DNA of 39,433 bases from Chiloscyllium plagiosum (Eukaryota), in the NCBI RefSeq assembly GCF_004010195.1, contig NC_057719.1:42493820-42533252 (forward strand). Direction: 5' to 3'. The position numbers were made by a program, and so were the translations under genes. Position 1 is the stretch's first letter; every line of letters begins with the position of its first letter. Below the pieces are notes generated by a model. The model worked only from the letters and a program-made list of their open reading frames with translations. It made no database searches and was not told the DNA's origin. Positions 11,101 to 38,136 of the stretch are shown piece after piece.

Positions 11101-11568
11101 GGACAGATTTGTTGACCCAATTTAGCTTCATCCTTTACACTGTAAGCGCTTGAGCAAAGAAATAGCTTGATAATGAAGGAGCCAAGTTACTGAAGGAGTT
11201 ACTTAGGGAAGCCTGGAGGAGGAAGTCTATCCCACCAGCCATACATCTCACTTAAAAAGCTGAATTAGTGAAAGATGTTTTTTTAGCTATCAAAACTGTG
11301 CCTGTAAATGTAATTCCAGTGGACTATGGTATTAACGAGTACTCAAGGCATGCTAACACATTCTCTGCTTTCAAGGTCGGGGAAGCCAACCCACCTGAAA
11401 GGTCAAGAACCTAATCCCAAATCTTTAACCCACCACTGGGAGACTGATTTTTAGCCACCCACCCAATTAAGTTTCCCATCTGCCTTTTCAAAGATATTGG
11501 GTGGGTCTGAAACATTACATCCATGATTCTATAAACAAAAACCACATAGGAAGCAAAGAAAGTTATGA

Positions 11569-11700
11569 GGTAAAAACAAGGACTGCAGATGCTGGAAACC
11601 AGGTTCTAGATTAGAATGGTGCTGGAAAAGCACAGCAGTTCAGGCTGCATCCGAGGAGCAGGAAAATCGACGTCTCGGGCAAAATCCCTTCATCAGGAAT
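11569..11700 (-). mobile_element. PLE terminal repeat with complete 3' end and a mutated hammerhead motif, fused to the ferritin retrocopy
   Basis: Minus strand reads ATTC-CTGATGA-A-GGGATTTTGCCC-GAGAC-GTC...CCAGCATCTGCAGTCCTTGTTTTTACC; homologous to 37672-37800. Confidence 0.88.
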
Positions 11701-12178
11701 ACACTTTGCTGAGTTCTTCAAAGAGCAGTCTCATGATGAATGGGAACACGCTGAGAAACTGATAGAATTCCAGAATAAACATGGAGGCTGAGTCCTCCTG
11801 CAGGATGTCAAGAAGCCAGAGCAGGATGAGTGGGGCAATGGTCTGGAGGCAATGCAGAGAGCTCTGCAGATGGAGAAGGATGTAAACCAGAGTCTGCTGG
11901 ATCTGCACAAACTCTCCTCTGACCACGCGGACCCTCACCTGTGTGACTTCCTGGAGAGGCACTACTTGGATGAATAAGTAAAGATGATCAAAAAGCTGGG
12001 ACATCACCAACCTGAAGAGATGGGAGCCCCTGAGAATGGCCTGGGAGAGTACCTGTTTGACAGGCTCAGCCTGAGCTGAGTGGGACTCTGGAATAATTTC
12101 ATATTGCAGTTTCACCATGTATGGTACTAAACTGTGAATTTGCATTGAATTTGGAAATAAATCCTGTTCATGACAAAA
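11701..12178 (+). pseudogene. FTH1: 5'-truncated processed pseudogene of a ferritin heavy/middle-type subunit
   Basis: From 11702: [122 protein letters not shown]. Stops at 11789 and 11975, two frameshifts, native stop 12077-12079, AATAAA 12156-12161, A tract from 12175. No introns across the usual ferritin exon 2/3 and 3/4 junctions. The exact paralog (H or M) is uncertain. Confidence 0.95.
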
Positions 12179-13184
12179 AAAGAAAGTTATGATCCTGCTG
12201 GACAAATTTTAGAAAAGGAATTCAAGCTTCCAGTTGATAGCTAAAGGGAGAGCATTCCTCTAGTGCAAGTGAAACAAATCTTTCAGGTTCTTTTTACCCC
12301 TCAGGAATTTGGCTTTAATGTTCTAAATGTGAGCTCTTATTTACATTCCTGTGGAGTTATTGAGTCTCCAGCTTCTTCCTCTCTCCTGGGTCCTGGCAGA
12401 CTAACGGTCCCTGAGAGTTTCCAGGAACATCTCAGAAAATGCTCTCCTCCATCGACCCCCACCCACCCCGCATGGTTTTGGAAATCATATGGAGCTTGTA
12501 TGCAAGTAGAAACGCTGACTAATTATTCTAAAGACCCCAATATTTGAAGCTTAAAAACATATCTGCTTACAATTCCAACATTCTCAGCATGTTCCTGTAA
12601 TTTGGGAGACTTACAGTCAAACCACTGTAAACACCGATGCCCAAGTGTGACCACCTTGTACCTTCTTCCCAGCAAAACAAAAAACTTTCAAATCTTTACC
12701 AGCCATGTCGACTAGATCTGTTATCAAGTTGACATCAAAACTGATCACACGACTCCCTTCAATTATCCAAATTAAAAGTTAAAACATAATCTGACATCTC
12801 AAATTGTAACCTCCTGAGAAATGAAACGTCACTGAAGTGATGAATTTTCATAACTTATAAACAGTTCATGCATTTTAACTAATTTACTACATACAGTTAA
12901 AGTCAAATTATTGTTCCCCTGTCACCACCCTCATGTTGTCATAGCTTTCCATCAAACATGTTGGCACCATCACAATACTTAACTTCAAATCACATCAACC
13001 AAATGTTTGTATCAGTTTGAATTTAAAGTCAGCTTCATTTTGATTTCTAAAATTCTTTATTCATATAGCTGAGCATTTATTTCTTTCGTTGTGGATTTGC
13101 CTTCCATTAGGCATTGTAGTACCTCTCCTTTCTCACTATCATTTATATTTCACGTTCTCAGTTAGACAGATTTATCCTTAGTTT

Positions 13185-21381: not shown

Positions 21382-21602
21382 AAAAGTTAAAAATCACACA
21401 ACACCAGGTTATAGTCCAACAGGTTTAATTGGAAGCACACTAGCTTTCGGAGCGACGCTCCTTCATCAGGTGATTATCACCTAATGAAGGAGCGTCGCTC
21501 TGAAAGCTAGTGTGCTTCCAATTAAACCTGTTGGACTATAAACTGGTGTTGTGTGATTTTTAACTTTGTACACCCTAGTCCAACACCGGCATCTCCAAAT
21601 CA
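21382..21602 (+). mobile_element. 221-bp fold-back PLE insert (inverted terminal repeat plus 35-nt tail)
   Basis: 92-bp inverted arms 21383-21474 and 21476-21567 with 3 mismatches and a 1-nt spacer. Exact 13-bp TSD TGATTCCTGAGAT at 21369-21381 and 21603-21615. Confidence 0.92.
21438..21472 (-). ncRNA. Minimal type I hammerhead ribozyme, intact core
   Basis: CAC-CUGAUGA-A-GGAGC(GUC)GCUCC-GAAAG-CUA-GUG: stem I CAC/GUG, 5-bp stem II, palindromic AGCU in place of stem III. Confidence 0.8.
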
Positions 21603-32970: not shown

Positions 32971-34020
32971 CAGATTGGAGGCCTGTGACCAGTGGAGGGC
33001 CACAATGATCATTGGTAGGTCCACCGCTTTTCATCATTTATATAAAATGATTTGGATGTAATCATAAGAGGTACAGTTAGTAAGTTTGCAGATGAGACCA
33101 AAATTGGAGGTGTAGTAGACAGCGAAGAAAGTTACCTCAGAGTACAATGGGATCTTGACCAGATGGGCCAGTGGGCCAAGAAGTGGCTGATGGAGTTTAA
33201 TTTAGATAAACATGAGGTGCTGCATTTTGGAAAGGCTAATATAATTAATGGTAATGTCTGGAGTGTGTTGCTAAACAAAGAGACCTTGGAGTGCAGGTTC
33301 ATAGTTCGTTGCAAGTGGAGTCTCAGGTAGATAGGATAGTGAAGAAGATTCCTGATGAATGGGTTTTGCCTGAAACGTAAATTCTCCTGCTCCTCGGATG
33401 CTGCCTGACCTTCTCTCGACTAGAGAAGAAGGTGGTTAGTATGCTTTCCTTAATTGGTCAGAGCATTGAGTATAGGAGTTGGCAGATCATGTTGTGGCTG
33501 TACAGGACATTGTGTGCAATTCTGGTCACCCTCCTATAGGAATGATGTTACAAAACTTGAAAGGGTCCAGAAAATATTTACAAGAACGTTGCCAGAGTTG
33601 GAGGGTTTGAGCTATCAGAAGAGGCTGAATAGGCTGAGGCTGTTTTCCCTGGGGTGTTGGAGGCGGAGGGTTAACCTTATAGAGGTTTATAAAATCATGC
33701 AGGGAATGGATAGGATAAATAGTCCAGAACTAGAGGGCATGGGATTAGGGTGAGAAGAGAAAAATTTTAAAAGGGACCAAAGGGGCAATTTTTTCACACA
33801 AAGGATGTTGTGTGCACAGAATGAGCTGCTAAAGGAAGTGGTGGACGCTGGCACAATTACAAAATTTAAAAGGCATCTGGATGGGTATATGAATAGGAAG
33901 GGTTTAGAGGAATATGGGCCAATTGCTGACAAATGGAACTAAATTAGGTTAGGACATCTAGTTGGCATGGACGAGTTGGACCAAAGGGTCTGTTTCCGTG
34001 CTGTACATCTCTATGACTCT
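32971..34020 (+). mobile_element. HER1-like CR1, 5'-truncated
   Basis: SKFADETKIGGVVDSEE (33052-33330), CVQFWSPSYR..LIEVYKIM (33454-33753), tail GTTTCCGTGCTGTACATCTCTATGACTCT. Confidence 0.92.
33348..33420 (+). mobile_element. 73-bp PLE terminal-repeat insert with a decayed hammerhead
   Basis: ATTC-CTGATGA..GAAAC-GTA; TSD TAGTGAAGAAG 33337-33347 and TAGAGAAGAAG 33421-33431 (1 mismatch). Confidence 0.82.
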
Positions 34021-34579
34021 AAAGAAAGGCCAACATTCCAATTGCCTTTCTTACTGCCCTGAATGCTAGTTTTTTTGTGATTTATGGACAAAGAATCCCA
34101 AAACCCTCCCTGCTGTAGCTTTATGCAACCTTTTCCCTATTTAAATAATATTCAGCTCCTCTATTCTTCCTACCAAAGTGCATAACCTCACATTTCCCCA
34201 TATTAATCCATTTGCCAAGTTAAGCCAGTGGGCAAAACCTTTCTTGATCCCTCTGCAGACTTTTTGTCATCTTCACCACTTAGCTTCCCATTTACTTTGG
34301 TGTCTTTTGCAAACTTGGCAATAGTATATTCACTTCCCTCAACCAACTCATCAATATATATTGTAAATAATTGTTGCTCAAGCATTGATCCGTGTAGCAC
34401 TCCACTAATTATAGGTTACAATCTTGAAAATGCCCCCTTCCCCCAACTCTCCATCTTCTCAGAGGCAGCTAATCCTCAGTCCATGCTAATATACTGCTCC
34501 AAACATCAACGACTCTTATTGAGTAGCCTAACATCTGGCACCTTTTCAAACACCTGCTGAAAATCCAAATATATTACAA

Positions 34580-35565
34580 ACATGTATAGGATCTTTCAAG
34601 TTAATTAGCTGCTGTTTTAGTGTGTTGGTGGGTTTATGGGCTACCATGATGCCAAGGGGTCTGAGTAGTCTGGCAGTCATTTTCCTCTGCTCTTCACAGT
34701 TCCTCATTGCTGCAGTGTGCGTTGGCTCATTGAAATAATGTTCTGATGCAGCTTCGTTTGTGGATGTTGGGGTGATTGCTTCTGTAGTTCAATATTTGAT
34801 CCGTATGTGTTGGTTTCCTGTAAACTATGGTTTGAAGTTCCCCATTGGCTGTTCACTCTACTGCGGCATCTAGGAATGGCAGTTTGTTTTCCTCTTATTT
34901 AGTGAATTTTATGCCAGTAAGGATATTATTGATGGTCTTGAAGGTTTCCTCTAATTTGTTTCATTTAGTGATGACAAAGGTGTCAACCATGTAGCAGACC
35001 CAAAGTTTGGGTTTGAAAGACCCTACAGAGACAACAAGCAAAACTAATGTCATTTACAAAATACCGTGCAAGAACTGTAACAAACACTACATTGGACAAA
35101 CAGGCAGAAAACTAGCCACCAGGATACATGAACATCAACTAGCCACAAAACGACATGACCCTCTCTCACCTAGTATCCTCACATACAGATAAGGAAGGAC
35201 ACCACTTCAACTGGGACAACACATCCATCCTAGGACAAACCAAACAGAGACATGCACGAGAATTCCTAGAAGCATGGCATTCCAATCGAAACTCTATCAA
35301 CAAACACATTGACTTGGATCCCATTTGCCACCCCCTGAGGAAAAGAACAGGGAATGACATCACCATCAGAAATGACATCACCACTGGAAACGACAACAAC
35401 CCAAGGAAACCCAAATGTATAAATTTAAAGCAGGAAACACCAGCTCCGTCCGGAGGCTCACTGAAGATGATCCTAGTATGGTGATGAAACGTCTGAAAAT
35501 GAACCTTCCAGCTCAGCCGGAGCTACAAATCCAGAACGTCAACCGGAGCTACAAATCTTCTCAAA
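34580..35565 (+). mobile_element. Penelope/Poseidon-type retroelement, 5'-truncated and 5'-inverted (RT on minus, GIY-YIG and terminal repeat on plus)
   Basis: Plus strand: NVIYKIPCKNCNKHYIGQTGRKLATRIHEH..REFLEAWHS (GIY-YIG). Minus strand from about 35006: LWVCYMVDTFVI (decayed WVRYVDDTF), KLPFLD, VYRKPTHTDQILNY. Confidence 0.92.
35458..35496 (+). ncRNA. Hammerhead motif in the PLE 3' terminal repeat
   Basis: UCA-CUGAAGA (35461-35467), decayed stem II, GAAAC-GUC (35486-35493), UGA; stem I UCA/UGA. Confidence 0.65.
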
Positions 35566-37671: not shown

Positions 37672-38136
37672 GGAGAAAGTGAGGACGACAGATGCTGGAG
37701 ATCAGGGTCGGGAGTGTGGTGCTGGAAAAGTACAGCAGGTCAGGCAGCATCTGAGGAGCAGGAGAATCGACATTTTGGGCATAAGCCCTTCATCAGGAAT
37801 GAGGCTTGTGGGCTGGGGTGAGGGAGGGGGGGGCGCGCTGAGNNNNNNNNNNNNNNNNNNNNNNNNNNNNNNNNNNNNNNNNNNNNNNNNNNNNNNNNNN
37901 NNNNNNNNNNNNNNNNNNNNNNNNNNNNNNNNNNNNNNNNNNNNNNNNNNNNNNNNCTTCATCCACCTATCACTTTCCCAGCTACATTCCCCCCAACCCC
38001 ACCCGCTCCCATTTATCTGTCAGCCCCCCCGCCCCACAAGCCTCATTCTTGTTGAAGGGCTTATGCCCAAAACATTGATTCTCCTGCTGCTCTGATGCTA
38101 CCTGACATGCTGTGCTTTTCCCGCACCACACTCTCA
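37672..38136 (-). mobile_element. PLE with inverted terminal repeats spanning an assembly gap
   Basis: Arms at about 37712-37842 and 38020-38136 are inverted, and both hammerhead motifs are mutated. TSD GCTCAGTGGTTAGCAT 37656-37671 and GCTCAGTAGTTGGCAT 38137-38152. Confidence 0.88.
37843..37956. other. Assembly gap (114 N)
   Basis: Run of N. Confidence 1.

Follow-up and report, generated by a model that had tools for sequence, protein, structure and literature searches.

Endonuclease-positive PLEs insert as a characteristic unit, an inverted 5'-truncated copy together with a one-sided tail of 30-40 bp (parts of PMC8557442 and PMC3846280). For a lizard PLE protein, the portion of PMC11167929 considered here describes nicking and extension of both strands, with two start sites that define the tail; the protein is predicted to be a dimer, and its initiation in vitro is internal and homology-independent. 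PLE terminal repeats also carry a minimal hammerhead motif, for which an excerpt of PMC4209133 served as the comparison. Human LINE-1 forms chimeras with antisense 5S, tRNA-half, U5, Alu and some mRNA sequences, ascribed to twin priming (PMC13174262, in part, citing Ostertag and Kazazian 2001); the word Penelope is absent from the main text of that paper. In the rotifer Adineta vaga, a host gene mobilised by a PLE retains its introns and is flanked by pLTRs (PMC3846280, in part). In the open-access literature, supplements aside, no description was found of a PLE insertion with a spliced mRNA as one arm, nor, in papers on PLEs, of a PLE enzyme that primes on poly(A).

The locus described here lies in a 39,433-nt stretch of the Chiloscyllium plagiosum genome (the window, to whose first letter all plain coordinates refer). 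By comparison with these systems, it appears to be a two-RNA chimera of the LINE-1 twin-primed kind built on a PLE insertion unit, and its closest precedents are the antisense RNA/LINE-1 chimeras and the rotifer capture with introns retained. As far as the cited portions of PMC8557442, PMC3846280 and PMC11167929 describe the PLE insertion unit, the two have in common the TSD, the tailed arm, a 5' end at the front edge of the hammerhead-like motif, and 3' ends of both halves that face the two TSD copies; unlike that unit, the window has a spliced, polyadenylated host cDNA in place of the inverted tailless arm. The LINE-1 chimeras, in the part of PMC13174262 concerned, likewise have two opposed RNAs with their 5' ends meeting inside one TSD of similar length, but the window locus has no LINE-1 sequence, a PLE tailed end takes the retroelement's part, and it is the mRNA that gives the poly(A) end. 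With the Adineta vaga capture, as partly described, it shares host sequence in a PLE-bounded insertion with a TSD; here, in contrast, the cargo is spliced, its 3' end is without PLE sequence, and an A tail adjoins the TSD. Ordinary processed pseudogenes, represented by the 27 other ferritin retrocopies of this genome, are similarly intronless and 5'-truncated, with a short A-run and an A-rich TSD start, whereas an antisense PLE arm at the 5' junction is found only at the window locus (0/27 of the others).

Structure of the locus

The features are as follows.

11555..11568, plus strand: left TSD copy AAAGAAAGTTATGA, 14 bp
11569..11703, minus strand: PLE tailed terminal arm, 3' tail end adjoining the left TSD copy
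11569..11603, minus strand: PLE "tail" of ~35 nt, not present in the inverted second arm of relatives
11665..11700, minus strand: minimal hammerhead-like motif, by eye (CTGATGA, stem, GAAA mutated to GAGA, CGTC)
11702..11703, no strand: 2-nt microhomology CA, common to the PLE arm and ferritin exon 2
11702..12079, plus strand: remnant of spliced ferritin coding sequence, from within exon 2 through exons 3 and 4; frameshifted, with stop codons at 11789 and 11975
12080..12174, plus strand: ferritin 3' UTR, from alignments to genes, with AATAAA at 12156-12161
12175..12178, plus strand: A-tail remnant of 4 nt, or 7 A counting the first three TSD letters
12179..12192, plus strand: right TSD copy, bridged by contigs in X17, X6 and X10

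Within the window, AAAGAAAGTTATGA has just two exact occurrences, 11555-11568 and 12179-12192; in shuffled sequence it has a mean of 0.08 matches, and none of 100 shuffles held two or more. The prediction of one exact 14-bp TSD around a minus-strand PLE terminus and a plus-strand ferritin copy is thereby confirmed, with 135 nt of minus-strand repeat and ~477 nt of plus-strand ferritin between its copies, and no separate TSD for the PLE piece is visible. The halves are joined directly, as had been proposed, but not at 11700/11701: past that boundary the PLE family reads on as GGAATACA and the ferritin gene reads ...GCGTCACTTTG, so that the arm extends to 11703, ferritin starts at 11702, and the two overlap by CA. 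The predicted AATAAA also stands, while the tail outside the TSD is just 4 nt long.

The PLE-ferritin junction is single-copy in the genome, with up to three mismatches allowed. A chimeric source transcript from elsewhere was considered and rejected, since the junction is single-copy and truncation exactly at the tail end would have to be coincidence. Similarity beyond the junction, at 12/16, was matched or bettered at 121/685 cDNA positions in a fixed 20-mer test and is not significant by that measure (shuffle p 0.025). Between the second arms of PLE insertions and their own TSDs, an automated comparison gave 0-2 nt of microhomology in 10 cases.

In contigs from organism A (X17, a 2025 study), record 12 spans 11647-11840 with no other letters and one gap, a second contig bridges the right boundary, and the left contig enters the PLE tail by 25 letters (threshold 31). 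Contigs from organisms B (X6) and C (X10) connect ferritin to the right flank, and their left-flank contigs reach 24 and 14 letters, respectively, into the PLE tail. The opposite-strand joint 11602-11701 was found in contigs of all four runs. The inner junction being bridged by a contig of an independent study, the suspicion of a misjoin was not borne out. In related organisms, the ferritin half does occupy the site in B and C, so that the insertion is probably older than the three organisms; the predicted empty site with a single TSD was not seen, nor a half-filled one, among the 15 joints listed out of 23 for them, where a missing contig joint is no proof.

Sources and age of the two halves

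The PLE arm is 93-96% identical to its relatives (best 39 of 40 scored, from 3312 candidates). All three longer relatives carry a putative GIY-YIG remnant (PF01541; E 3e-4, 1.4e-3 and 0.028, all below the Pfam cut-off) with a YIGET motif, and a putative RT remnant in the longer relatives is an 80-aa stretch containing AMG and YIDD motifs (RVT_1 at E 0.0023, again short of the Pfam cut-off). The core letters of the hammerhead are present in the arm by eye, with one core base mutated in the window copy; at position 11674 of the motif this copy differs from its relatives. An Rfam scan of the chimeric locus, hammerhead-like motif included, gave no match.

Relatives are usually arranged as TSD, tailed arm, inverted arm without the ~35 nt, and TSD, their second arms beginning near TTCTAG/AGATTAG. 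A set of tailed arms was picked regardless of left flank (n=71, TSD resolved in 47); 35/47 have the inverted second arm, and hence an inverted terminal copy with a one-sided tail of 30-40 nt and a TSD, and 12/47 are single-armed. These units correspond to the published PLE insertion unit and match the activity of the lizard PLE protein, since it nicks both strands and extends them from two start sites. The mode of TSD length is 14-15 bp (24/47 here, and 47/94 in a second set), and only one of the 47 resolved TSDs begins with AAA. An arm end without any shift from the family tail end is the commonest class (13/47), and the window arm belongs to it. Its tailed arm is thus normal and flush with the TSD, and the ferritin cDNA sits where an inverted arm would normally be.

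Other PLE ends in the window lie at 37684-38133, 611-700 and 33348-33414. One inverted PLE pair there has a 16-bp TSD-like repeat that spans an assembly gap. TSDs of 11-16 bp had been predicted for other PLE copies in the window; what was found, by eye, is TSD-like repeats of 13 and 16 bp at two other PLE ends. A decayed ORF at ~34546-35522 is PLE-like by eye (35143-35481 is without a Pfam match), and at 21383-21567 lies an inverted repeat of 92 bp, near-perfect and with 1 nt between its arms, which has an Rfam microRNA match below the gathering score.

The ferritin half matches Pfam Ferritin above the cut-off. It is without introns at the exon 2/3 (11812/11813) and exon 3/4 (11938/11939) joins, where intron-containing genes of the same genome (a cluster on C39, and C74429 and C92025 among others) have them, so the claim of an intronless cDNA holds at two exon joins. 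Its 3' UTR is 87-88% identical to those of C74429 and C92025, and together with the two joins this indicates a spliced mRNA as source. A source-type gene has AAAA where the A tail of the window copy lies, but in retrocopy L035 polyadenylation took place at nearly this position. Precisely lost introns, a 3' UTR, a poly(A) signal, a short tail of 4-7 A and a 14-bp TSD characterise the copy as a processed pseudogene. It is a dead one, 5'-truncated in exon 2, with stops at 11789 and 11975 and deletions of 5 nt and 1 nt near 12000-12020; "retrogene formation", as the original prediction put it, is therefore an overstatement, the reading frame being broken by the truncation, two stops and a frameshift.

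At non-CpG positions, the ferritin coding part diverges at 13/362 and the PLE arm at 5/124 (Fisher p=0.79), the latter measured from relatives selected as similar (8/122 when these were picked by pattern); 4/105 letters of the ferritin UTR are private. Divergence from source is thus ~4% for both halves, and the comparison that had been called for reveals no age difference.

There are 28 ferritin retrocopy loci, against 34 cyclophilin and 9 EF-Tu-domain matches, which are mostly partial and not sorted singly; the surplus fits an abundant passenger RNA. In the other ferritin retrocopies the A-run is 5-14 nt long and resolved TSDs likewise begin in it. Two target types recur in the 3' flanks (L069, L071, L072, L078, L079, L083, L085-L088, L090, L009, L020, L074, L080, L089): an A-run with CAGG after it, within a single repeat that is putatively LTR-like from its appearance, and a site immediately before the head of a tRNA-type SINE. 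The tails of 9/25 ferritin retrocopies are followed by A-run+YAG, against a 7% background. Such targets suggest a target-preferring element of L1/Tx1 type. Two of these loci, L088 (C19:45.78 Mb) and L090 (C35:29.12 Mb), hold the same retrocopy with near-identical flanks, either a duplication or an assembly duplicate. As for the genes, C39:4.53-4.75 Mb (L026, L027, L029, L030) is a tandem array of at least 10 near-identical intron-containing ferritin genes, which differ in introns and 3' UTRs.

Search for further chimeras

The original prediction anticipated a genome-wide enrichment of PLE-mRNA chimeras; no second case turned up in the samples examined, which overlap in part and were drawn with exact motifs. 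One set was defined by AAARAAA 4-10 nt before the tail, and took in one subfamily in full (71 rows) and 100 of the 265 rows of another. It came to 159 distinct arms including the chimeric locus (94 TSDs resolved; TSD-unresolved cases read by eye among the first 95, the later 64 by script only), and an mRNA arm is present only at that locus: the 158 others, 34 of them with a TSD starting in the A-run, have none. At 3/94 resolved PLE insertions in this set (L200, L206, L411), LINE-like fragments, identified by eye, lie at the arm join. Taken with L012, these loci have 25-190 nt of LINE-like or SINE-like sequence where the arms meet.

Other patterns gave the same result. A PLE core followed within 500 nt by AATAAA and an A-run yielded 0/50 distinct chimeric loci (7 matches with A10; 290 with A7, 100 of them listed; rows opening with a second PLE arm left out). 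A tailed arm with AATAAA and A6 yielded 0/71, from 100 of 150 rows and with a reach shorter than the insert of the chimeric locus; the window passed as positive control for the script. At the 5' junctions of the 27 other ferritin retrocopies there is no antisense PLE arm; a fuzzy flag for one at L022 proved false. Searches with cyclophilin and EF-Tu domain 3 found few intronless-looking copies, and BLAST for nearby PLE arms gave no lead. Among the cyclophilin loci, L245 (C3:105809379-105809843) has an intronless full-length domain within an uninterrupted frame of 186 aa and may be either a retrogene or a gene of one exon. Unlike the chimeric locus, L016 (C22:7515952-7519227) is a ferritin retrocopy into which a 132-nt PLE end has inserted, flanked by a separate TSD of ~15 bp. 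On the samples examined, PLE-mRNA chimeras are not a recurrent class; by extrapolation from these, a few dozen could remain genome-wide.

Possible origins

Very probably the locus arose in a single event, with two nicks primed on different RNAs, as originally proposed. A shared TSD, halves in opposite orientation, an arm ending exactly at the family tail end, a join at microhomology and equal age all argue for this, as do the length of the TSD and the slot that the cDNA occupies. No allele with only one half was seen among the listed joints. Opposite orientation, a common TSD and equal age are also what marks twin-priming chimeras.

As to the enzyme, we somewhat favor a single PLE insertion in which the second primer was extended on ferritin mRNA instead of PLE RNA, the PLE enzyme copying the mRNA. 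PLE reverse transcriptase is related to telomerase. The PLE endonuclease would make a cut with a 14-nt stagger. The top-strand nick would prime at the PLE-specific tail start, and a copy of 135 nt would take in the hammerhead-like motif and stop a little past it. On the bottom strand the nick, with its TTTCTTT-3' end, would anneal where the poly(A) tail of a plentiful ferritin mRNA begins, and PLE reverse transcriptase would likely extend it by ~475 nt; the two cDNAs would then join at CA, with gaps filled by repair. With AAA at the start of just one PLE TSD in 47, the A-rich start of this one calls for a cause such as poly(A) pairing. The LINE-like pieces at the arm joins of L200, L206 and L411 speak for the PLE enzyme too, as a sign that PLE insertions in this genome accommodate foreign sequence. 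Against it count the lack of a second chimera in the samples examined, the internal, homology-independent initiation in vitro, and the retention of introns in published host-gene captures by PLEs. The proposal of mRNA copying driven by a PLE thus fares well as to the two-nick event, and less firmly as to the copying enzyme, an A-rich TSD start being common to L1-type retrocopies.

The ferritin end would be equally well explained by an L1/Tx1-type enzyme, since ordinary retrocopies in this genome have the same A-rich TSD start and A-runs of 5-14 nt, a range that includes the 7 A of the window copy. Again in a single event, such a reverse transcriptase would have copied the ferritin mRNA from the A-rich nick. 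The opposite nick would have been extended with PLE RNA as template, whether the PLE enzyme did this or that L1-type enzyme as well (twin priming in trans); the antisense chimeras with human LINE-1 are ascribed to twin priming (PMC13174262, in part). An L1/Tx1-type enzyme is a serious possibility, though a less probable one. The arm ends at the exact PLE tail start and at no random internal point, and the AATAAA/A-run and A-rich-flank sets contain no PLE arm joined to another poly(A) 3' end, whether L1-like or not; a weak point against it is that the site is without the A-run+YAG motif seen after 9/25 other retrocopies (7% background). An L1 enzyme would also be expected to prefer its own RNA.

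Two separate insertions are improbable. Either a PLE would have entered at the 5' boundary of the retrocopy without a TSD of its own, or the retrocopy would have landed on the PLE's second TSD with deletion of target sequence. PLE ends are dense, with two tailed arms in the 39-kb window; PLEs do enter ferritin retrocopies (L016, L021); the script resolved no TSD for 65/159 tailed arms; and, no empty site being seen among the joints listed, the order of events is not observable. Nucleotide-exact placement, the right orientation and the loss of one TSD would nonetheless be required, for which rough inferred odds are 1e-5 to 1e-4 per retrocopy, or ~1e-3 over the 28 ferritin copies. The equal divergence of the halves argues against it as well, as does the fact that B and C both have the ferritin half here, their contigs also reaching a short way into the PLE tail.

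Still less probable is the copying of DNA rather than RNA, with the free T-ended strand of the PLE invading the A tail of a ferritin pseudogene elsewhere. All eight candidates with the same 3' UTR were scored: the retrocopies on C5 and C1 are shorter and 80-82% alike, the genes are closer, and the coding part differs from the genes by 3.6%, although, with 40 of 177 candidates scored in the ferritin search, a donor could be missed or lost. An assembly misjoin can be dismissed almost entirely: no single contig among those listed spans the whole element, but the TSD is exact, X17 bridges the inner junction and the right boundary, and X6 and X10 bridge the latter.

The chimera is one dead fossil, without visible host effect. 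It bears on the origin of PLE inverted ends, for which the choice is between self-priming by fold-back and two priming events. A second arm derived from an unrelated spliced mRNA cannot be the fold-back of one cDNA, and so is a natural sign that another RNA molecule can serve as template at the second nick. More generally, we judge it an evenly balanced question whether vertebrate PLEs can prime on mRNA poly(A) at the second nick, which would let them generate spliced retrocopies independently of LINE-1; the insertions taken for fold-backs would then be two-template products, the second template being chosen in trans. Copying of mRNA by a PLE could be tested directly with the lizard PLE assay, as far as it is set out in the cited part of PMC11167929. 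If the PLE enzyme did copy the mRNA here, LINE-1 would not be the sole source of processed pseudogenes in PLE-rich vertebrates.
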